Part shown: piece after piece, positions 4,427 to 40,321 of the stretch
Numbering within the stretch: position 1 is the first letter of the stretch
How the letters are laid out: the number at the start of each line of letters is the position of its first letter
DNA from: a virus
Lineage: Duplodnaviria; Caudoviricetes
Reading direction: 5' to 3' (one strand)
Virus record (IMG/VR): IMGVR_UViG_3300027839_000010
Coordinates: 1 to 56,092 of that record
DNA length: 56,092 nucleotides
Notes under the pieces: model-generated
What the model saw: only the letters and a program-made list of their open reading frames with translations
Databases searched by the model: none
Told to the model about the DNA's origin: nothing
Made by a program: the position numbers and the translations under genes

Positions 4427-4657
4427 AGTTTCTCTTACATGTCGTAGTATATAACTACTATGTGAGTTTATAAAGAAAGTTGTTTTTCCTAAACACTTAT
4501 AATACTAGAAAACAAGGGGTTGAAAATTAAAATAAAAATAAAACGTGTTTTTGTTAAAGTCCACATAGTAAGTAATACTATAATCAAAACGTCAAAAATA
4601 TAGTAATAGTGCTAAAAATGGTCGTTCTTTTATTAAGTAGTATATCTAATGATATCT

Positions 4658-5122
4658 ATGTGGAAAATCACTAAAGCATTAGACACATTAGAAAACAAAA
4701 TCACGACTAGAAAAGACAGAAAACTAGCCTTGAAAAATGCCAAAACTGAATATAAAAATTTAGTAAAGGCTATCAAAAAATCCCAAAATCCAGCTGATTT
4801 TTTAAATGCTGACGATATACCAGCACAAAAAGAAACCGTAACAGAAAAGGTTTCTAGAATGTCAAAAACAAAAGTTGAAGAAAAATATGGAAAAACCATA
4901 ATTTTTAAACCAACTTCAAGAAAAACAACATACTATGCAGATAAAGGAAGCATAGACGGAAAATTTACAGCATGGTCAGAATTGACAAATTGGTTAATTG
5001 TCAGTCCAAACCCAAAAAACAAAACTGAAAACAGAATCTTTTTTAATTTCTGTGATGAAAAAAACATCAAAAATTTTACAAAACAAGCACATAAAGATGG
5101 TTTTGAGGTTGAATTTCATTGA
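4658..5122 (+). CDS. Lys-rich early hypothetical protein
   Basis: TTTTATTAA at ~4628 lies about 22 nt before ATG 4658 (the track starts at 4649). Confidence 0.65.
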   Translation: MWKITKALDTLENKITTRKDRKLALKNAKTEYKNLVKAIKKSQNPADFLNADDIPAQKETVTEKVSRMSKTKVEEKYGKTIIFKPTSRKTTYYADKGSIDGKFTAWSELTNWLIVSPNPKNKTENRIFFNFCDEKNIKNFTKQAHKDGFEVEFH

Positions 5123-9223: not shown

Positions 9224-9723
9224 AGCAATCAATAACACTATCAGAAGTATATAAATTCATCAATGAATCATACTGTAAGATTAATAAAAATGGATTGTAT
9301 ATAGATTCAATAGTTGATAGATTTAGAGGAGTTAGATATAATAATGGTGGTTTTGCTGAATACATTGAAGAAGATTATCATCATTATTGTGAAACATATT
9401 GTGAGGAATTGTCGCAAGAAAGTAAAGATTTACATGAACAGATAAATATATTAATGAAACTGTTTGAAATTGATTACAATCTAGAAAATGAGTATCAAGA
9501 TTGTATGTGGGAAGAAACAAAAATGAATTGTTCTAATCATAATAAAAATACAATAATGTTATGTCTTTCTAAACATGGAGATTGTAATGATACAAGAACT
9601 ATCTTAAATAAAGAAGCAGAAGAATTTGCACATAAAATGTATGATGAAGATTATGATGTTCAAAATTCTTTGTATCGTGAGTACAAAAAGGAAATGATAT
9701 ATTCAGGAGATTATTATGATTGA
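9220..9723 (+). CDS. acidic hypothetical protein
   Basis: ORF in the track (9205); ATG 9220 overlaps the upstream stop. Confidence 0.6.
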   Translation: MKQSITLSEVYKFINESYCKINKNGLYIDSIVDRFRGVRYNNGGFAEYIEEDYHHYCETYCEELSQESKDLHEQINILMKLFEIDYNLENEYQDCMWEETKMNCSNHNKNTIMLCLSKHGDCNDTRTILNKEAEEFAHKMYDEDYDVQNSLYREYKKEMIYSGDYYD

Positions 9724-10162
9724 TGACAAAACCCTAATGAAACATGTCAGATTATGTAAGGATAGTGTCATGCTTAGACAACAAACTCTTATTTGTAAGC
9801 AACATGATATGGTATTAGAACTACCATGATTAATATAAAATGTGCTGATTGTGATATGGATTGTGAAGTTCCATCTAAAGAACTCATATATTGTGTAAGA
9901 TGTTTCCAAAATCATAGAAATGACATACAAGATGATTACTATTGATAGTATTCGTATGTGATTTATGTAATGCTGAGTTACCTGATGAACTAACTAGATT
10001 AGAAAGACATACTGAATGGCATAGTAAGGCACACATACAACACAGGAATACTACTCAAGGTGTTCCAAACTATAAAAAGAAGGAGGTATGATATAAAATA
10101 TGGAAGAAGAATATGAAGAAAGACCTGAATGGTCATGGATAGATAGAAAGAAATAACACCCT

Positions 10163-10198
10163 TTTCCAACGGTGTTTCGTTGGGAAAGACTTAAATCA
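10163..10198 (+). promoter_or_regulatory. palindromic operator plus BRE/TATA promoter
   Basis: TTTCCAAC-N8-GTTGGGAA overlapping GAAAGACTTAAATCA; same design as 7183-7227. Confidence 0.65.
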
Positions 10199-10214
10199 AA
10201 CCCTTGATGATAGA

Positions 10215-10330
10215 GTTTGTCTTGAGAGATCAAGCAAACGTCAATCAAAGATTGATATGTTACAAGTATCTAACGCTAGTGTGACGGTATGAAGATTCAC
10301 ACAGTTATTCCATACATTGTAACCACATAT
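10215..10330 (+). ncRNA. candidate structured ncRNA or 5' leader
   Basis: Three consecutive stems: GTTTG-T-CTTGA(GAGA)TCAAG-CAAAC; TCAATC(AAA)GATTGA; and a long interrupted stem GTTACAA/TTGTAAC, GTAT/ATAC, TAAC/GTTA, GTGTGA/TCACAC. Confidence 0.45.
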
Positions 10331-10370
10331 ATATATAAAGCCAAGTGCTTTATAAAAGGAGGTAATTAAT

Positions 10371-10625
10371 ATGACATGCGACAATAGATTACTAACTACC
10401 AAAGATGTTAGTACATTGCAAAAGAAAAACCTAGTAAAACTCAGTAGTATATTGAGTGACTCTGATAAAATACAAGCAAGTAAATTTGCTGTATTATTAT
10501 TAGATGTTGATGGCGAAATGTTTAGAACAGGAAACCAACTAGGACAATTAGTTCCACAAGAATCCACTATCGTAAGAGATAGAACAGGACAGATTGTGGG
10601 TATTCCAACAGTATCTGGTGGCTAA
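10371..10625 (+). CDS. ubiquitin-like beta-grasp protein (SAMP/MoaD/ThiS/Urm1-like)
   Basis: 84 aa ending ...ESTIVRDRTGQIVGIPTVSGG-stop, resembling the SAMP/MoaD xxPPVSGG tail. An internal FAVLL-DGE strand is present. GGAGGT SD. Confidence 0.7.
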   Translation: MTCDNRLLTTKDVSTLQKKNLVKLSSILSDSDKIQASKFAVLLLDVDGEMFRTGNQLGQLVPQESTIVRDRTGQIVGIPTVSGG

Positions 10626-10642
10626 CCACCCCTTATATTTTT

Positions 10643-10840
10643 TTGAGTCCACATAGAAAATTCGTTTGCTATCTTTGTTACAAAACTTTCGGTGGAAGAA
10701 AACTAGGATCTTCAATAGGTTCTGGTAAATTTATTGAAAACATCTGTAAGAAATGTACAAAAGAAAATTACGTTTGGGATCACGATCTTAGACCTAATTA
10801 TAGAGCAATCGAAAGACAATTAAAGGAATCACAAGTATAA
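10643..10840 (+). CDS. small Zn-finger protein
   Basis: CYLC...CKKC; abuts the ATPase start. Confidence 0.55.
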   Translation: MSPHRKFVCYLCYKTFGGRKLGSSIGSGKFIENICKKCTKENYVWDHDLRPNYRAIERQLKESQV

Positions 10841-10841
10841 A

Positions 10842-13283
10842 ATGTCCAAAGAAGAATACTATAAACCAACACTAATCGAGCCAAAGGATTTAGATATTGA
10901 AGGAACGGATTATAATGCTGACCTTAATGTTATAAAAGAGGGCAACACTATCAAGGTTACTATGGATCAAGATGTAATGATACAGCGTGTATCACATGAG
11001 ATTTATAGTAATGCTGAATCAGGTATAAGAGAACTCATCAACAATGAGTATCGTGCCTGTCGTCAAGCAAGAGATAACTATAATGCCAAGCCTAGAATAG
11101 AGATAACTATTGATGCACGTACTAGAGAACTAACCATAGAGGGTATTGATTCTCTTGGTATATCAGTTCGTGTGTTTGATAAAGTTCTTAGACGTCTAGG
11201 TGTATCAGGTAATGTTGATGGTGGTAAAGAGATTGGTCAGTTTGGTATGGGATTCGCAGCTTATACTACACTTTCAGAATTGATTACTGTCGAAACATAT
11301 AGTAGAGAGGACAACCAAGAGTTTGCTTTCTTAGGAGATAGAGGTATTGATTTCAAGATACTTCCTAAACCTGAACGAGAAACATTTGGAACTAAGATAC
11401 TATTAACCTGTAAAGAGAGTGTAGATTTCAAAGACATTAGGGATAAGGTAAAAGCATGTGCCTTGTTCTCAACCATACCAACTGTTATCACAATATTAGA
11501 TGACGGTAAAACAGATGATTCTTATAGGTATGATAACGATCTTTCAATAGGAACAGAAGTTCTACCTACATATAGTTCAGGAAAAGATTGGTGTATCTCA
11601 GAATATCGAGAGAAAGTTCCACAACAATATACTCATTTAGATGAATCCACTAGAGGATTATGTGATCATGGTTTTGCAGTAGGTTTTTACAAAGAAGTTC
11701 ACATCAACAATGATGACTACGAGTTCTTTGGTATTATATCTATTAATAAGAACGGATCATTAATGAGTTTAGAGGGTGGTAATAGATATGATTCAGGGGA
11801 TAACCATGCGTTGTTAGTGAACACACCTATACAATCAAGCATAAAACCAAAAGGTAAATGGACAGTATGGTATCTTAATGTAAAGAACGAAAGAGATTAT
11901 GTTCCAACAGCAGATAGAGATAGATTAAAAGATGAATCATCTGCCAAAATTAATATGGTATTAGGTATAGAATTACAAGAAAGATTCACAGGCACAGGTC
12001 TTGCGATAAATAGTATTGCAGATTTCAATGCTTCAATCAATAAACCTGTGTTGAAAAACCTTTGGAACTTTACTGAACTTATGAATAGTAAGGAATACAT
12101 TAGCAGTAAGAGAGTAATGGATATATTAGATAAACGATACCCAACTATTAATCAAAGACGATTAGTCATGAGTGATATGATTTCCAGCAACAATACAATA
12201 GTTGTATTGAAAAGTCTTAGAGCAGATATGATGTCAAGATTAACTGGATCGTTAGGTAAGAAAAAGTCACTTACATTTATCAGGTGGCGACCAATAGATG
12301 TGTATGGAGATGATAGTCTTGAAACTGTAATAGCATTGATGAATGAATGTAATGTAGTATGGGGAGAACAATATCTGAAAGACAATAAGGTCAAGGGTAT
12401 TAAATCTACTAACCTTGCTAAATCTGTTGCAGAAGAAGCAGGTTGTGTATTATATCACAAAGGAAACAACAGATATTCTAGTGTCTTTGGAACTGAAACA
12501 AGATACTATGTAGAGAAATATTCTACTACTGTTGGAGAGGTTAATGAACAAGCAGATTTGAAAGACAATACAAACCATAGAAATAATATCATGCAGGTTA
12601 CCAAAGAAGATTGGCATGAGTTCTATGAAAAAACATTGTATAATCATAGTGGTATTGGATTCTGTATTATGAAACCTCGTAAAGGTATTAGTGATAACAT
12701 TGAATGTTACACAGATTACAAGGAAGCATACAAGACAAGAAAGTTCCTAACATTAGGAAGTGAAAGGAAAACAATAAAGGAATTGTTCCCTGAAGATAAT
12801 GGTAAAATAAACAATGGATTTGAAGATGGTGTAATACAACTTGTAGTATGTCCTAAGAAACATGCTGAAACAATATCTGAACTATTTAAACCAGAAGATA
12901 TACAATTCAAAGAAACTTATAACAACAATTCTGTGAATGTAATATTCTGTAATAGTAATAAGGAATTGATATGTCTTACAACATACATTAATCAAACATA
13001 TAAAAATTCATATACTATATGTACAAGCCATGCTAGTACATTTAAAAAGTTGTTTGATAAAGATAGTAACTGTGGAAATACCTTAATGACAAGTTCTAAA
13101 GAAACTGATTGGCAACAAGTTATAAAGATGGAAAACTTTAGAAGATCAATTCCTGACAGTATGTATCAGTTGTTTTTGAACGCTGTTAATAATGAATCAG
13201 ATAGAGGACAGGAATTTATGCAATCCATATATGATTATGGAGATGAGCAAAGATTAGCAGGAGATAAATTTGACAAGCCTTGA
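10842..13283 (+). CDS. Hsp90/MORC-type GHKL ATPase (T4 rIIA-like architecture)
   Basis: IYSNAESGIRELINN (N-box), IGQFGMGF (G2), FGTKI (G3) and YVPTADRDRL (middle-domain Arg loop), followed by a long unrecognised C-terminus. Confidence 0.8.
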   Translation: MSKEEYYKPTLIEPKDLDIEGTDYNADLNVIKEGNTIKVTMDQDVMIQRVSHEIYSNAESGIRELINNEYRACRQARDNYNAKPRIEITIDARTRELTIEGIDSLGISVRVFDKVLRRLGVSGNVDGGKEIGQFGMGFAAYTTLSELITVETYSREDNQEFAFLGDRGIDFKILPKPERETFGTKILLTCKESVDFKDIRDKVKACALFSTIPTVITILDDGKTDDSYRYDNDLSIGTEVLPTYSSGKDWCISEYREKVPQQYTHLDESTRGLCDHGFAVGFYKEVHINNDDYEFFGIISINKNGSLMSLEGGNRYDSGDNHALLVNTPIQSSIKPKGKWTVWYLNVKNERDYVPTADRDRLKDESSAKINMVLGIELQERFTGTGLAINSIADFNASINKPVLKNLWNFTELMNSKEYISSKRVMDILDKRYPTINQRRLVMSDMISSNNTIVVLKSLRADMMSRLTGSLGKKKSLTFIRWRPIDVYGDDSLETVIALMNECNVVWGEQYLKDNKVKGIKSTNLAKSVAEEAGCVLYHKGNNRYSSVFGTETRYYVEKYSTTVGEVNEQADLKDNTNHRNNIMQVTKEDWHEFYEKTLYNHSGIGFCIMKPRKGISDNIECYTDYKEAYKTRKFLTLGSERKTIKELFPEDNGKINNGFEDGVIQLVVCPKKHAETISELFKPEDIQFKETYNNNSVNVIFCNSNKELICLTTYINQTYKNSYTICTSHASTFKKLFDKDSNCGNTLMTSSKETDWQQVIKMENFRRSIPDSMYQLFLNAVNNESDRGQEFMQSIYDYGDEQRLAGDKFDKP

Positions 13284-13392
13284 GAAAACAATAACATATT
13301 ACAGATGTAACTACTGTAATAATCTAAGGATTCATTGGTCAGATGAACAAACCGATACGCATTTATGTAAGCCTTGTTATGAATCAACATGA
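13270..13392 (+). CDS. 40-aa Zn-finger micro-protein (paralogue A)
   Basis: MTSLEKTITYYRCNYCNNLRIHWSDEQTDTHLCKPCYEST. Confidence 0.6.
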   Translation: MTSLEKTITYYRCNYCNNLRIHWSDEQTDTHLCKPCYEST

Positions 13393-13541
13393 CTAGATAC
13401 GAACACACCATTGTTATGATCAGATGTAATATATGTGATAGCCCAAGAATACATTGGTCAGATAAACAAGATGATTTAGATTTGTGTAAGAAATGTTATT
13501 CAGAACGTTGGGATAAAAAAGTGCGTGGAGATGAATCATGA
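13389..13541 (+). CDS. 50-aa Zn-finger micro-protein (paralogue B)
   Basis: MTRYEHTIVMIRCNICDSPRIHWSDKQDDLDLCKKCYSERW...; ATGA coupling. Confidence 0.6.
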   Translation: MTRYEHTIVMIRCNICDSPRIHWSDKQDDLDLCKKCYSERWDKKVRGDES

Positions 13542-13705
13542 ATAGAAAAGAAATACATTATGTGCAAGAGGCATTTCGTGAATTGATTAAGAATATAGAC
13601 GAACAACTTAAGGTTAAATTTTTATGTGAAGATGAAAGTGTATATCTTACAGGTGTTCTTCAAGGTTATCAACATGGATATGAGTTAGTGAGGAAATTAA
13701 AATGA
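13538..13705 (+). CDS. 55-aa hypothetical protein
   Basis: Open frame with ATGA overlaps at both ends. Confidence 0.5.
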   Translation: MNRKEIHYVQEAFRELIKNIDEQLKVKFLCEDESVYLTGVLQGYQHGYELVRKLK

Positions 13706-14391
13706 AAGTTTCATTCTTAGATGAACGAGATGGATTGTATATTATTATGATCGAGGGTAAAGTCAAGACCATAGTAAGAGATGCCTACTCACAACTCAAG
13801 TATAAAACATATAATGGTAACAGAATTTTCTATGATTTCGGAGATGGTTTAAAGATACAGGAAACTTATGATGATAGAATCTTTAACTGTTACATAGGAG
13901 AGGCAGTAATTAATATCAGAAATGGTAAGAAGATTGCCGAGTATATCATAGATGAAAACAAATCAGGCTATGAATTATTCGTCAAAGAACATTACCTTGA
14001 ACAGCACAGAACTGAACTATTAGATAAGATCATTGATACATATAATAATAGAGTGGTCAAAGTTAAAGATGGTTATGTGGTTGATGACATATTCAAGGTA
14101 GATAACAAAGGAACAAGTTATTGTAAATCTGGTGTTGTAAAATTACCTAGTGCAAAACATGGTAATTGGAAATTCCTTTGCACAGTAGCACAAGGAAATA
14201 TAAGAAAGATGTCAATAGATAGTGAAGTTGGTTTGCTAGAATTAGATACAACATGTATGACTGTACTAGCAAAGATTGGATTCTTCTGTAATCCAAACGT
14301 TCATGATAAAGTATTCATGAATCAACTACCACAGAAAATACAAAAATTACTTGTCGAACAAGACAAGGTAAAAGGAGGTAATTTAATATGA
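13702..14391 (+). CDS. hypothetical protein with an FLCTV...VLAK...D..F..QL motif
   Basis: 229 aa. The C-terminal pattern recalls, from memory only, the domain found C-terminal to DUF4132. Confidence 0.65.
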   Translation: MKVSFLDERDGLYIIMIEGKVKTIVRDAYSQLKYKTYNGNRIFYDFGDGLKIQETYDDRIFNCYIGEAVINIRNGKKIAEYIIDENKSGYELFVKEHYLEQHRTELLDKIIDTYNNRVVKVKDGYVVDDIFKVDNKGTSYCKSGVVKLPSAKHGNWKFLCTVAQGNIRKMSIDSEVGLLELDTTCMTVLAKIGFFCNPNVHDKVFMNQLPQKIQKLLVEQDKVKGGNLI

Positions 14392-14576
14392 AATTAGAAA
14401 AACAAATAACTGAAAAGTTATTAGAAAAATTAGACCAAGCAACAGTAATAGATTACGTTGCTAACAATTACTCTTGTGAGATAATAGATATATTACAAGA
14501 TGATATATATGATATGGTTAGAGAACAATCAGATAGTTTTAATGATCCTGATTCTGCATGGAACGATAGAGATTGA
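14388..14576 (+). CDS. acidic hypothetical protein
   Basis: GGAGGT SD; ATGA overlap. Confidence 0.6.
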   Translation: MKLEKQITEKLLEKLDQATVIDYVANNYSCEIIDILQDDIYDMVREQSDSFNDPDSAWNDRD

Positions 14577-14667
14577 CTAACAAAGATTTTGAAAATGGAG
14601 ATTTTTGTTTAGAATGTGGTTGTCATTATACAGAAGGTTGTCCTTGTGATAAAGAGGAAGAAGATAA

Positions 14668-15144
14668 TTGACCGACATGAATGATACTGCTGATGTTAGA
14701 ATACATTATTGCAAATCAAAAAAGCATACAGGCAAACCAATCGTAGTTAATCCAATAGATTCAGATGAATATGATACAGATAATTTTGAGATGAATGATG
14801 TTAATGTTCGTGTCAAATTTAATAACGCTGTATCAAAAGAAAAATCTAGTGGAGCTACTAGCATACTAGAGGTAAGGAAGCCCAAACCCATTGAAGATAA
14901 TAATACTTTAATGTATAAGGCAATAAGAACAAGAGAGAACGCATATAATAGTTCATGTATATCTTGTAGTAAAGACTTTGAAATAGGTGTAAAGAGAATA
15001 CATTGGAGATTAAAATTACAGGCTTCATCATGGTTTCATAACGGATCATTTACTACAGATCAATGTCAAGAATGTGCATTAAGAACATGCGAACTTTGGA
15101 TAGATAGTATGAGACAGATGAGAGAGAACATTAGAAATGAATGA
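14668..15144 (+). CDS. hypothetical protein with a C-terminal Zn finger
   Basis: CISC...CQEC. Confidence 0.6.
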   Translation: MTDMNDTADVRIHYCKSKKHTGKPIVVNPIDSDEYDTDNFEMNDVNVRVKFNNAVSKEKSSGATSILEVRKPKPIEDNNTLMYKAIRTRENAYNSSCISCSKDFEIGVKRIHWRLKLQASSWFHNGSFTTDQCQECALRTCELWIDSMRQMRENIRNE

Positions 15145-16507: not shown

Positions 16508-16711
16508 ATGAATAGAGACGATATGTATAAAGATACATATGATGAATTGATTGTAGACATACTTCAAAGAGTAGAAGTATTAGAAGAAAGAGTTTCAAGA
16601 CTTCCATGTGATCATATCGAATTTCCATTAGATGAGGGATATGAATTAGATGAGGATAACAATGAGGTAAGAGTTTTGTATTGTAGAAACTGTGGAGAAG
16701 TAGTAGAATGA
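16508..16711 (+). CDS. small Zn-ribbon protein
   Basis: CDH...CRNCG; GGAGG SD. Confidence 0.6.
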   Translation: MNRDDMYKDTYDELIVDILQRVEVLEERVSRLPCDHIEFPLDEGYELDEDNNEVRVLYCRNCGEVVE

Positions 16712-17382
16712 AAACTAAAGAAGCAAAAGACATTGTAGGTGGGCTAACCTACACAAGTAAAATGCCCTGCCCTAGTTTATCTATACCATCTAGTGCCTGT
16801 ATAACAGGGGCTAAGTTAGTAAAGATTAAGGGATCTACATGTGAGGGTTGCTATACATTTAAGGGAATGTATAACTTTCCTATTGGAAAACTGGCTAGGG
16901 ATAAAAGACTAGATAGTTTATACAAACTTAGATGGGTTGAGGCTATGGTCACACTCATTAAATCTAGGAGAGATTATAAGAAAGGAGAGGATTGGTTTAG
17001 ATGGCACGATAGTGGAGACATACAAGGTATGATCCACCTGTGTAACATTATGCAGGTTGCAGAACTTACGCCTGATTGTGATCATTGGTTGCCTACTAGA
17101 GAGAATGCTTTTCTTAAGGCTTATGTAGAGAGTGGTAAGGTTGTTCCTAGTAATATGTATGTTAGAGTTTCTGCTACTATGATTGATGGTATGCCCCCCA
17201 CCGAGTTTGTTAATGAACTTAACAAGTATGATAATGTTAAGGGATTCATAGGCACAAGCACAGTACATAAGGACAAGGAAGCCATTGGTGTCAGTTGTAT
17301 TGCATATGATCAAGGTGGAGAGTGTAAGGATTGTCGTACCTGTTGGTCAACAGAGTTAAATGTATCATACCCTAAACATTAG
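16708..17382 (+). CDS. GP88-like phage protein (Cys-rich, radical-SAM-like)
   Basis: SKMPC...C...CEGCY, FRWHDSGD, HWLPTRE and CKDCRTCW motifs. Confidence 0.7.
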   Translation: MKTKEAKDIVGGLTYTSKMPCPSLSIPSSACITGAKLVKIKGSTCEGCYTFKGMYNFPIGKLARDKRLDSLYKLRWVEAMVTLIKSRRDYKKGEDWFRWHDSGDIQGMIHLCNIMQVAELTPDCDHWLPTRENAFLKAYVESGKVVPSNMYVRVSATMIDGMPPTEFVNELNKYDNVKGFIGTSTVHKDKEAIGVSCIAYDQGGECKDCRTCWSTELNVSYPKH

Positions 17383-17383
17383 T

Positions 17384-17722
17384 ATGTCACACAAGACAGA
17401 TTATAGAACACAGAAACAGAAAGCATTAGAGATACTTGAACATGAACAAATCAAAGTTGTAATGAAAGGGTTGTGGGAAATAGAATCATTAACTGAAGAT
17501 CAAAAATATGAGATTGAGTTAGTTGATACAACACAATCTATTAGTGGTTACACCTGTGGTTGTAAGGCATGGAAGTTTTCTGAAGATAAGGAATGCAAAC
17601 ACGTTGTTGCAGTAAAGATATTCGATAAAGGATATACTCCAAAGCATATTGTGTTTGATGTTGTGTCATTAAATTCTACTGATTTATCAGTAGAACAAAT
17701 CTATGAACTTATTAACAGATAA
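17384..17722 (+). CDS. SWIM zinc-finger protein
   Basis: YEIEL...TCGCKAW...ECKHVVAV (CxC-n-CxH). Confidence 0.75.
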   Translation: MSHKTDYRTQKQKALEILEHEQIKVVMKGLWEIESLTEDQKYEIELVDTTQSISGYTCGCKAWKFSEDKECKHVVAVKIFDKGYTPKHIVFDVVSLNSTDLSVEQIYELINR

Positions 17723-38654: not shown

Positions 38655-39941
38655 TTATCTGACCACATCTAATCCCCTAAACAACGCCCACCATCCATCT
38701 ATCCCGTAAGGATTCTCCTCTACATATACATGGTTAAGAAATTTTAAATGGGTGTGGTTTTGTTTATAATATTCTAATAAATCTGCACCTATACCATTTT
38801 GTAATAATCCTGATTTACTTCTATATTCTTTCCAATACTCTGTATCAAGTTTCTTATTGAAAGCAAAATGTATGAATATAAAATCTCTTATTGTATCAAG
38901 ATAATTATTCACAAATATATTATATTTTTTTATTAGATTATATTGATTTTTACCATAAGTAATAATATCTATAATATCTTTAGATAATTTCAAAATTACC
39001 ATAATAGATGATGCTTCTAAAGGTTCTACAAATCCATCTGAGTTACCCAATGTTATTACGTTACCTATCCAATGTTCTTTTAACCTGCCTGATTTAAATT
39101 TAATAATTCTAGAGTTATCTATTGTGATGTCAAGTTTTGATTCTGCTTCTAACTTTGCTTCTTCATCAGTTATATGGTTTGATGAATATACATATCCACA
39201 AGCTGTTTTATCATTATGATCAATCTCCCATAACCACCCATTATTCATTGTGGTTCCTTTTGTATAAGGTCTTATAGAATTACCTAAACGTTTTTGAAAA
39301 AACAAAGCCCTGTCATTTATTAACATATTATTATATGAATACCACTCTGAATTACTGAGGATTGATTTAAACCCTGAACAATCTATGAAGTAATCTGCTT
39401 CATATTTATTATTGAGTAATTGTATTATATTGCCATCTTTTTTAATATCTGTTATTTCTTCTGAAATTATTTTAACACCTCTAATCAATAATACTTTTTC
39501 CAAGTAATCTAAGAATAAAGAATTTTCTATATGATATGCAGTTGACTCTGGATTAGGGTGTGCATTTATTTTCTCAATCATATATTTAGATAACTTACTG
39601 TTTCCATAATTACCACCCTTGAAATTAAATCCATTTGGTAGGTTACTTTTATAATCTATCACATCAAATGCATAGTCGAATGTGTAATGAAATGGTGTAT
39701 AACCAAAGTCAAGTTCTATACCATATTTTGTTATAGGTCTAACATAAAAATTAAATTCATCCATATTAATTCCACAGTGATCTCTTAATGTTTCAATAAA
39801 ACTACCTACTGTACTTTCTCCTACACCTATTGTTGATATATTAGGACTCTTAATTATTGTGATATTATAATCAGTTTTATTGCTTAACATTAATGCAGAT
39901 AAATAACCTGCTGTTCCTCCACCGACTATTATTATATTCAT
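38655..39941 (-). CDS. flavin-dependent tryptophan-halogenase-family protein
   Basis: IIIVGGGTAG, IGVGEST, TKYGI, FIDCSGF, GWLWEI and GFVEPLEAS. ATG 39941 overlaps the upstream stop. Confidence 0.9.
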   Translation of the reverse strand: MNIIIVGGGTAGYLSALMLSNKTDYNITIIKSPNISTIGVGESTVGSFIETLRDHCGINMDEFNFYVRPITKYGIELDFGYTPFHYTFDYAFDVIDYKSNLPNGFNFKGGNYGNSKLSKYMIEKINAHPNPESTAYHIENSLFLDYLEKVLLIRGVKIISEEITDIKKDGNIIQLLNNKYEADYFIDCSGFKSILSNSEWYSYNNMLINDRALFFQKRLGNSIRPYTKGTTMNNGWLWEIDHNDKTACGYVYSSNHITDEEAKLEAESKLDITIDNSRIIKFKSGRLKEHWIGNVITLGNSDGFVEPLEASSIMVILKLSKDIIDIITYGKNQYNLIKKYNIFVNNYLDTIRDFIFIHFAFNKKLDTEYWKEYRSKSGLLQNGIGADLLEYYKQNHTHLKFLNHVYVEENPYGIDGWWALFRGLDVVR

Positions 39942-40321
39942 ACATACTCTAAAATATCCCACTTTAATAAATCTTCGTTCCATAAATAATTTACATCAGT
40001 TCTAGGATAGTCTACTGGTGCTTCCCAATTACAAGTAGTTTCATTTAATATCCATGAATCATAAGGTTTAGGAGCAATAAAAGCATCTAATACTGAATCA
40101 TAACTGAAACCTATACCAGCAAAGTTTTTTCTTAAAGCCTTTGTTTGATCTTCACTAGGGGTATGTGTATTAGGAATATGATGAATACCTAAATGTGTAT
40201 TATATGATGTTTGTATCCAATTTTCAAGGTTTCCCCAATTACCATTATCTAATACTTCTTGATCAATAACTAAAACTCTAATCACTATATTGTTTTCATC
40301 AATTTCTGCAAAATGACTCAT
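39938..40321 (-). CDS. tail-fibre-associated protein of the type common in aquatic phages
   Basis: MSHFAEID, WIQTSYNT, LRKNFAGIG, DAFIAPKPYDSW and WEAP. Confidence 0.7.
   Translation of the reverse strand: MSHFAEIDENNIVIRVLVIDQEVLDNGNWGNLENWIQTSYNTHLGIHHIPNTHTPSEDQTKALRKNFAGIGFSYDSVLDAFIAPKPYDSWILNETTCNWEAPVDYPRTDVNYLWNEDLLKWDILEYV

Follow-up and report, generated by a model that had tools for sequence, protein, structure and literature searches.

The stretch of DNA analyzed here (the window) is a 56,092-bp virus record from IMG/VR (IMGVR_UViG_3300027839_000010), estimated to be 88% complete, which carries the large terminase and prohead protease of a tailed virus together with MCM and RadA/Rad51, two archaeal-type replication proteins. 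Three genes on its + strand are the subject of this work: one for a small protein of 84 amino acids (aa) that ends in ..IVGIPTVSGG (10371..10625; the GG protein), one for an 813-aa GHKL ATPase of a divergent Hsp90 type (10842..13283), and one for a 229-aa protein, p229 (13702..14391), which contains NWKFLCTVAQGN. We show that these genes form a conserved module, widespread in tailed viruses and proviruses of ammonia-oxidizing archaea, and we propose, at about even confidence, that this Nitrososphaerota tailed-virus module encodes an Hsp90-type, ATP-driven remodeling machine with p229 as its dedicated partner, elaborated by a mimic of a ubiquitin-like (Ubl) tail. The original prediction, made from the sequence alone, had described the region as a candidate Ubl conjugation or antidefense system of seven open reading frames (ORFs); all seven are present at their predicted coordinates on the + strand, tightly packed behind a gap of 279 nucleotides (nt).

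That the small protein, the ATPase, and the 229-aa protein belong together is borne out by conserved synteny. Database searches returned 71 to 72 relatives of each protein, a single metagenome scan yielded 178 relatives, and the p229 family forms 162 clusters at 50% identity. Our locus set of 97 members (80 metagenomic, 11 viral, and 6 genomic) falls into 60 clusters when the ATPases are grouped at 90% identity. Of these clusters, 46 extend 1.2 kb or more beyond the ATPase gene, and every one of the 46 has a p229 relative just downstream of it (full length in 41, reduced to the N-terminal half in 5); in viral loci L002 to L012, the p229 relative frequently begins at, or a few bases from, the ATPase stop codon. 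On the other side, 54 clusters include 1.5 kb or more of upstream sequence, and in 49 of them a GG-tailed small protein is encoded there. A search of viral contigs with p229 returned ATPase loci alone (9/9). Five ATPase relatives sit in contigs of metagenome-assembled genomes (MAGs) of Nitrososphaerota/Thaumarchaeota, one of which is a 2.0-Mb Nitrosopumilus chromosome, and we therefore take ammonia-oxidizing archaea as the host range; the sixth genomic relative comes from a MAG labeled Gammaproteobacteria. None of the three proteins carries a family annotation, and our literature search found no paper describing the module, although its genes might be listed in supplementary tables.

The ATPase carries the sequence motifs read from it originally, with RELINNEYRAC as the N-box and GIDSLGIS as the G1 box, as well as IGQFGMGF as the G2 box. 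All four motifs of the Bergerat (GHKL) domain, which in the window protein spans approximately residues 46 to 215 (nt 10977-11486), are conserved in the family and align with those of Hsp90: each of the 33 aligned sequences has E64, N68, G106, G132, G135, and G137, G183 of motif IV is likewise invariant, and T184 and D103 are kept in at least 90%. The ATPase thus shares with Hsp90 and HtpG a Bergerat N domain with the catalytic glutamate, the Mg-binding asparagine, the adenine-binding aspartate, the GxxGxG lid, and the GT motif, but differs from them in its G1 box, which reads DSLG (that is, DxxG) instead of DNGIG, and in its N-box, NNEARACRQAR in the family; judged from this alignment, both peculiarities are family traits rather than decay. 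A phmmer search against PDB chains hits Hsp90 N-terminal domains (best E 4.9e-5), and with a profile of the 33 sequences the best E value improves to 1.6e-9, the best 60 sequences all being N domains of Hsp90, Grp94, or TRAP1. In hhalign comparisons, the family matches bacterial HtpG with a probability of 96.2%, in the GHKL domain alone. Beyond this domain, an invariant arginine, R359 (nt 11916-11918), lies in the conserved loop NVKNERDYVPTADRDRL, with the pattern P355..R359-D360..L362. HtpG has an arginine at residue 351 in ..DLPLNVSRELLQ (..NVSRELLQ), at an equal distance from the N terminus, and from this match, made by eye, the R359 loop may correspond to the catalytic loop of the Hsp90 middle domain. 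The best PHROG for the ATPase, phrog_23723, has no named function, and for residues 230 to 813, where the structure model is poor (pLDDT 0.42), the ESM Atlas offered nothing usable.

The family also includes longer and duplicated members. Relatives P0070 to P0072 reach ∼1,180 to 1,210 aa, and one of them matches Pfam LAGLIDADG_3, which suggests, from the domain match, an intein or a homing-endonuclease insertion. A provirus-like copy of the module on a Nitrosopumilus sp. MAG chromosome (L027, 2161-10865) contains the GG gene twice (2161-2523 and 4543-4905), repeats the ATPase N terminus as a 46-aa piece at 2607-2747, and has tandem ATPase paralogs of 739 and 881 aa ahead of p229; L105 likewise has two ATPase genes, and these pairs suggest that ATPases are heterodimeric in some lineages.

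The structure model of p229 is confident (pLDDT 88) and shows two halves, an N half (residues 1 to 102) that is kept wherever the ATPase occurs and a C half (residues 103 to 229) with Cys160 (nt 14179-14181) in a WxFLCTV motif. The cysteine in FLCTV is strongly conserved: it is present in 38 of 38 and 36 of 36 sequences of two alignments, and in 108 of the 118 wide-family representatives with a residue at this position. In that wide family, E54, K191, and Q208 are better conserved than Cys160. No conserved histidine accompanies this single conserved cysteine. The order of secondary-structure elements assigned by DSSP (helix, four-strand meander, loop, Cys160, three helices) is that of the ubiquitin-conjugating (UBC) fold. 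In the structure searches proposed for an E2 fold, Foldseek found nothing in the PDB, and the Cys-bearing half drew many weak matches to UBC, UEV, and RWD proteins. The stretch preceding Cys160 is variable in both sequence and length; W156 is its one conserved residue, it has no HPN motif, and no member out of 36 matches an E2, UEV, or RWD Pfam family at E values up to 1. The ESM Atlas offered nothing usable for p229 either. A C-terminal GG in p229 itself, seen in the window and in some relatives, is not conserved and was discarded as a feature, and a search of viral contigs returned no relatives of the Cys-less members.

Outside the thaumarchaeal viruses, a counterpart of this gene pair is found in the haloarchaeal virus HGTV-1. 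An Hsp90 gene has been noted for both HGTV-1 and HSTV-2, in PMC8651126 and again in a figure legend of 10.1101/2025.02.15.638363. We find that the HGTV-1 protein annotated as HSP90 chaperone, gp172, is a homolog of the viral ATPase (hhalign probability 98.5%), sharing the GHKL domain, which again is the only part to match in hhalign, and the same ..PT(A/S)DRDRL loop (..PEPTSDRDRLQ); at 529 aa, it is ∼300 C-terminal residues shorter. Gene 167 of the same virus (L013, 8011-8793; 260 aa, uncharacterized), 1.5 kb downstream of the Hsp90-like gene, is a homolog of p229 (Foldseek E 8.7e-8; hhalign 90.1% over 186 columns). It differs from p229 in having valine at the position of Cys160, and no GG-tailed small protein adjoins the HGTV-1 pair. 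A Foldseek search of a viral structure library with p229 gave three proteins at E values of at most 1.3e-5, two of them from HGTV-1, and the family is therefore present in haloarchaeal viruses, probably as paralogs. Besides gene 167, the BFVD proteins R4TLF9 (229 aa) and R4T709 (338 aa) share this fold; two other HGTV-1 candidates were rejected, gp171 at a probability of 0.06% and gene 180 for want of any similarity. Since the pairing of an Hsp90-like ATPase with a p229-fold protein spans haloarchaeal and thaumarchaeal viruses, we regard these two components as the ancestral core of the module.

The hallmark of the GG protein is its C terminus. In 68 of 72 relatives, GG stands at the very end or 2 to 3 residues before it: 34 end in GG, 34 continue with SL, SS, SI, SY, NL, or SGI, 2 have AG instead, and 2 are truncated. 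The GG tail is present in all 49 clusters in which the gene was found, some of which were located by the tail itself. A conserved diglycine with a short variable extension is the signature of Ubl precursors and of carriers of the ThiS/MoaD type. The tail pattern of the family, (L/I/F)-P-(A/T)-(V/I)-(S/A)-G-G, is that of ThiS/MoaD proteins of the host class: 22 ThiS/MoaD sequences of Nitrososphaeria have ..PP(V/I)(S/A/G)GG at the C terminus, in some cases followed by a few more residues. When the two families are compared by hhalign, the last 10 columns align with an E value of 0.0047 (probability 7.5%), against 0.14 to 0.68 in 10 column shuffles, and removal of the tails leaves no signal. By these alignments, the tail of the GG protein copies the ThiS/MoaD/SAMP tail of the host. 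An apparent similarity to the host Ubl domain in a single-sequence hhalign comparison (72%) was rejected, the 22-sequence profile leaving signal in the last 10 columns only, and for this reason we do not claim homology at the level of the fold. The model of the GG protein (pLDDT 83; 53 for the last 4 residues) has no demonstrable β-grasp, and none of 44 members matches Pfam ThiS at E values up to 1. The Ubl of the original prediction is thus supported as regards its diglycine tail. T4 gp33 aligned with the GG protein over nearly its full length at E values of 0.36 to 0.47, which we treat as chance. On the host side, locus L111 (439-1776, − strand) encodes a 445-aa protein of the host lineage (Nitrosopumilus) in which a ThiS/MoaD-like Ubl domain runs into a ThiF E1 at ..ILPAVAGG|SEEL, next to a threonine-synthase-like gene; L128 has a similar fusion.

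The GG gene also has a characteristic 3′ end. A run of at least five T residues lies within 40 nt of its stop codon in 37 of 49 clusters; the ATPase gene has such a run after it in 0 of 54 clusters and the p229 gene in 3 of 44. In the window (10617..10642, + strand), a hairpin overlaps the GG codons and the stop codon, and TTTTTTT comes after it. The sequence pattern suggests that the T tract acts as a regulatory boundary (an oligo-T terminator or else a TATA-like element) and that the small protein is expressed apart from its neighbors.

The presence of the GG protein follows that of one half of p229. Among the clusters that can be judged on both sides, 37 have the GG protein together with full-length p229, 4 have neither the GG protein nor the C half, and none has full-length p229 without the GG protein; a single cluster pairs the GG protein with an N half only (L048, in which the ORF is cut near the contig end). 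The HGTV-1 pair, as the outgroup, is in line with this pattern, with neither Cys160 nor a GG-tailed neighbor. This co-variation points to separate roles for the two halves of p229, the N half serving the ATPase and the C half the GG protein. In L026 (7189-7815), L030 (7197-7880), and L109 (801-1487), a variant partner joins the p229 N half to another C-terminal domain, in which GRDE..Q.W.H..PPEY..R....CE.WL is conserved; none of these loci has a GG gene nearby, and no Pfam family was matched.

A complex prediction gave a weak lead on where the GG protein may bind. We modeled ATPase residues 1 to 400 together with p229 and the GG protein, the last being the scored partner, and obtained weak support for an interface, with a score of 0.37 (runs of 0.50, 0.35, and 0.37) compared to 0.02 for the best of three controls; of 80 solved complexes, 58 reach the mark used for this score, as do 2 of 110 mismatches, with 7 of the 80 and both mismatches lying at or below 0.60. 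The runs agree in at least 71% of the contacts, with a partner pLDDT of at least 78. Replacing the ATPase fragment brought the score down to 0.02, so that any contact predicted for the GG protein is with the ATPase rather than with p229; we treat this placement as a lead.

The remaining features of the locus are less constant. The gap at 10092..10370 (+ strand, 279 nt), with a TATATATATAAA tract and with AAGGAGGT immediately before the ATG, is the sole sizeable intergenic region upstream of the module and is probably its promoter/leader region. The single promoter/leader of the original prediction may correspond to this gap; at the other end, the gene array runs past 14391 with overlapping ORFs. 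Contigs from RNA libraries of four runs start at 10229 to 10246, a weak hint of a 5′ boundary, and metatranscriptome contigs from four libraries span most of the module at identities of at least 99%, with DNA carry-over as a possible source; such contigs are unfit for ranking expression, and the parts that they leave uncovered (for example, 9251-10003 in most runs, and 14020-14521) are uninformative. A σ70 promoter scan gave 28 sites versus 29.1 expected and is uninformative for an archaeal virus, and an Rfam search of 9500 to 15000 returned no RNA family. Between the GG and ATPase genes lies a 65-aa zinc-ribbon protein with a CxxC...CxxC pattern (Zn65; 10643..10840, + strand), for which no Pfam family was found; a relative occurs in 22 of 45 clusters, mostly directly before or after the GG gene, which makes it a frequent but nonuniversal neighbor. 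Two paralogous zinc fingers of 40 and 50 aa (Zn40 and Zn50; 13270..13392 and 13389..13541, + strand), with the common pattern RCNxC..RIHWSD.Q.D..LCKxCY, lie together with a 55-aa ORF (13538..13705, + strand) between the ATPase and p229 genes. This region gave only weak matches to DUF7685 and ZZ, and the 11 other viral loci contain no relative of Zn40, Zn50, or the 55-aa ORF, which are lineage-specific inserts outside the conserved module. The view of the zinc fingers as parts of the system is not supported by these distributions.

Farther downstream in the same gene array, the window encodes a 158-aa protein (14668-15144, + strand), apparently a fusion of two parts encoded separately in L003 and L004, relatives of which recur close to the module in several loci. 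It is followed by a GP88-family protein (16708-17382, + strand; E 6.3e-22), with GP88-like genes also downstream of the module in L002 to L004 and L010, and by a weak SWIM zinc-finger protein (17360-17722, + strand). An unusual auxiliary gene at 38655-39983 (− strand) encodes a 442-aa tryptophan halogenase homolog (Pfam Trp_halogenase, E 2.5e-80).

In the remodeling machine that we propose, the ATPase would bind and hydrolyze ATP through the Hsp90-like residues E64, N68, and D103, the GQFGMG lid, and R359 in a middle-domain loop, probably acting as a dimeric clamp that remodels proteins, and the N-terminal half of p229 would be its constant docking partner. Most lineages would have added a third component, a small and separately regulated protein whose exposed ..LPAVSGG tail copies the ThiS/MoaD/SAMP-type tail of the host; this protein would be functionally tied to the Cys-bearing C half of p229 and probably sits on the N-terminal and middle part of the ATPase, and its tail would be processed where 2 to 3 extra residues follow the diglycine. 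The machine may also tag proteins. Such an arrangement would depart from cellular Hsp90s, which have no dedicated partner genes of the kind that flank the viral ATPase. Several observations weigh against this proposal. The hhalign and hmmsearch alignments to Hsp90 end with the N domain, so that neither a middle nor a C-terminal Hsp90 domain is detectable by sequence, the correspondence of the middle-domain loop was found only by eye, and residues 400 to 813 have no relative recognizable by sequence search. The 813-aa protein matches no Pfam family, HSP90 and HATPase included, at E values up to 1, and HATPase_c_3 matches just 3 of its 33 relatives. Three p229 relatives (P0258, P0315, and P0334; 411 to 422 aa), which lack Cys160, are fused to a C-terminal N6-adenine methyltransferase (Pfam N6_Mtase/MTS), and these fusions, as judged from their domain content, point away from a chaperone. 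Finally, three of the four clusters that lack both the GG protein and the C half (L026, L030, and L109) share one replacement domain, with ATPases nearest to GG-bearing lineages, and the fourth, L028, is degenerate, so that the four represent only one or two independent events. Apart from this methyltransferase, Pfam searches of the variant and long relatives returned nothing; an extension of the methyltransferase match into p229 itself, seen by tblastn with giant methylases of Vibrio phages, was not confirmed by hhalign.

The alternative that deserves most attention is a Ubl-type thioester relay, in which the GG protein is trimmed to ..GG and activated at its C-terminal glycine by a host ThiF/UbaA-type E1, whose own Ubl tail it copies, or, less conventionally, by the GHKL ATPase; Cys160 in the E2-like half of p229 would then receive it, and it would end up on client proteins bound to the ATPase. 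Much of what we observed would fit: the diglycine that is terminal or followed by 2 to 3 variable residues, mostly S-x, like those of Ubl precursors; a tail pattern identical to that of host ThiS/MoaD proteins; a cysteine placed between meander and helices as in UBC proteins, and the co-variation of the half that bears it with the GG protein; and a T tract that fits a protein made in excess. The host-lineage genome has a ThiF E1 (245 bits), fused to just such a Ubl domain, so that hijacking of a host E1 is conceivable. Against it stand the lack of any ThiF or Prok-JAB match at E values up to 1 in a virus that is 88% complete, the restriction of the similarity to ThiS/MoaD to the last 10 residues, and the loss of the cysteine in 10 of 118 family members, and we regard this relay as possible but doubtful. 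Bacterial Ubl operons (CBASS Cap2/Cap3, Bil, and Bub) have a recognizable E1, a JAB or other peptidase, and a demonstrable E2 fold, none of which is shown for the viral module, and unlike the archaeal SAMP/ThiS/MoaD proteins and their UbaA/ThiF-type E1, the GG protein has a GHKL ATPase as its neighbor. An Hsp90-type GHKL ATPase could conceivably take the place of E1 and E3 in a so far undescribed kind of chaperone-coupled tagging machine, with the tail activated by a host E1 or by the ATPase itself (as an acyl-phosphate or adenylate), carried on Cys160 of a highly divergent E2-like domain, and transferred to clients of the viral Hsp90, an idea that strikes us as rather unlikely. Of the conjugation system originally envisaged, the GG tail, the cysteine, and the module are conserved, whereas an E1 or JAB protein in the virus, a β-grasp, and an E2 fold were not demonstrated. 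The same tail would also suit a sulfur carrier, thiocarboxylated like ThiS, MoaD, TtuB, or Urm1, with Cys160 as a persulfide relay and a nucleic acid or cofactor thiolated during infection; GG followed by two residues occurs in some sulfur carriers, and a conserved cysteine without a conserved histidine would be in keeping with such a role. According to PMC9574740, Urm1 connects conjugation with cysteine persulfidation. The module, however, has no recognizable E1, rhodanese, or thiolase gene, and the GG protein has neither a clear β-grasp nor ThiS sequence membership. As we know of no sulfur-carrier pathway that uses a GHKL ATPase either, we consider this role quite improbable.

Two further readings start from the ATPase. 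GHKL ATPases also act on DNA, as MutL, MORC, and topoisomerases do, and after the thioester relay we rank next, as an unlikely explanation, a DNA-directed machine of the MORC, paraMORC, or topoisomerase-B kind, in which p229 would be a DNA- or modification-related partner and the GG protein a regulator. The location of the module among early and replication-type genes of the + strand, in a genome with MCM and RadA, and the three methyltransferase fusions of p229 speak for it. The N domain, however, matches Hsp90 rather than MutL, MORC, or Topo VI-B among the best 60 PDB sequences, the R359 loop resembles the Hsp90-type R-loop, and no Toprim, WHD, or S5 domain was detected in the ATPase by Pfam. 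The other reading is that of the original prediction, which saw an rIIA-like ATPase with the 229-aa protein as a possible rIIB-like partner, that is, a membrane-associated protector against abortive infection. T4 rIIA is indeed a phage GHKL ATPase of Hsp90-like sequence type whose gene is paired with a second, smaller one, and its N domain aligns with our family (RELITN with RELxNN and GGFGLG with GQFGMG; E 0.0025). Yet the hhalign probability for rIIA is 11.9%, in columns 41 to 229, the GHKL domain only, compared to 96% for HtpG; the p229 family is unrelated to T4 rIIB (probability 0.1%, 11 columns); the best PHROG is not an rIIA family; and the hosts here are archaea. Neither the kinship nor the partnership holds, and a role of this kind seems to us the least credible of all.

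Ammonia-oxidizing archaea are among the most abundant microbes of ocean and soil, and little is known of how their viruses take them over. To our knowledge, most archaea lack Hsp90, so that an Hsp90-like engine brought in by a virus, complete with partners of its own, would be a novel route for importing chaperone capacity. A combination of Ubl and Hsp90-like elements has a parallel in Sacsin, a giant single polypeptide of eukaryotes with a Ubl domain and Hsp90-like ATPase repeats. If the GG protein is truly conjugated, the module would be the first Ubl-type system with a GHKL ATPase at its center, as well as the first in an archaeal virus with a tail that copies the SAMP/ThiS proteins of its host, with consequences for how the origin of ubiquitin-like signaling and its plasticity are seen.

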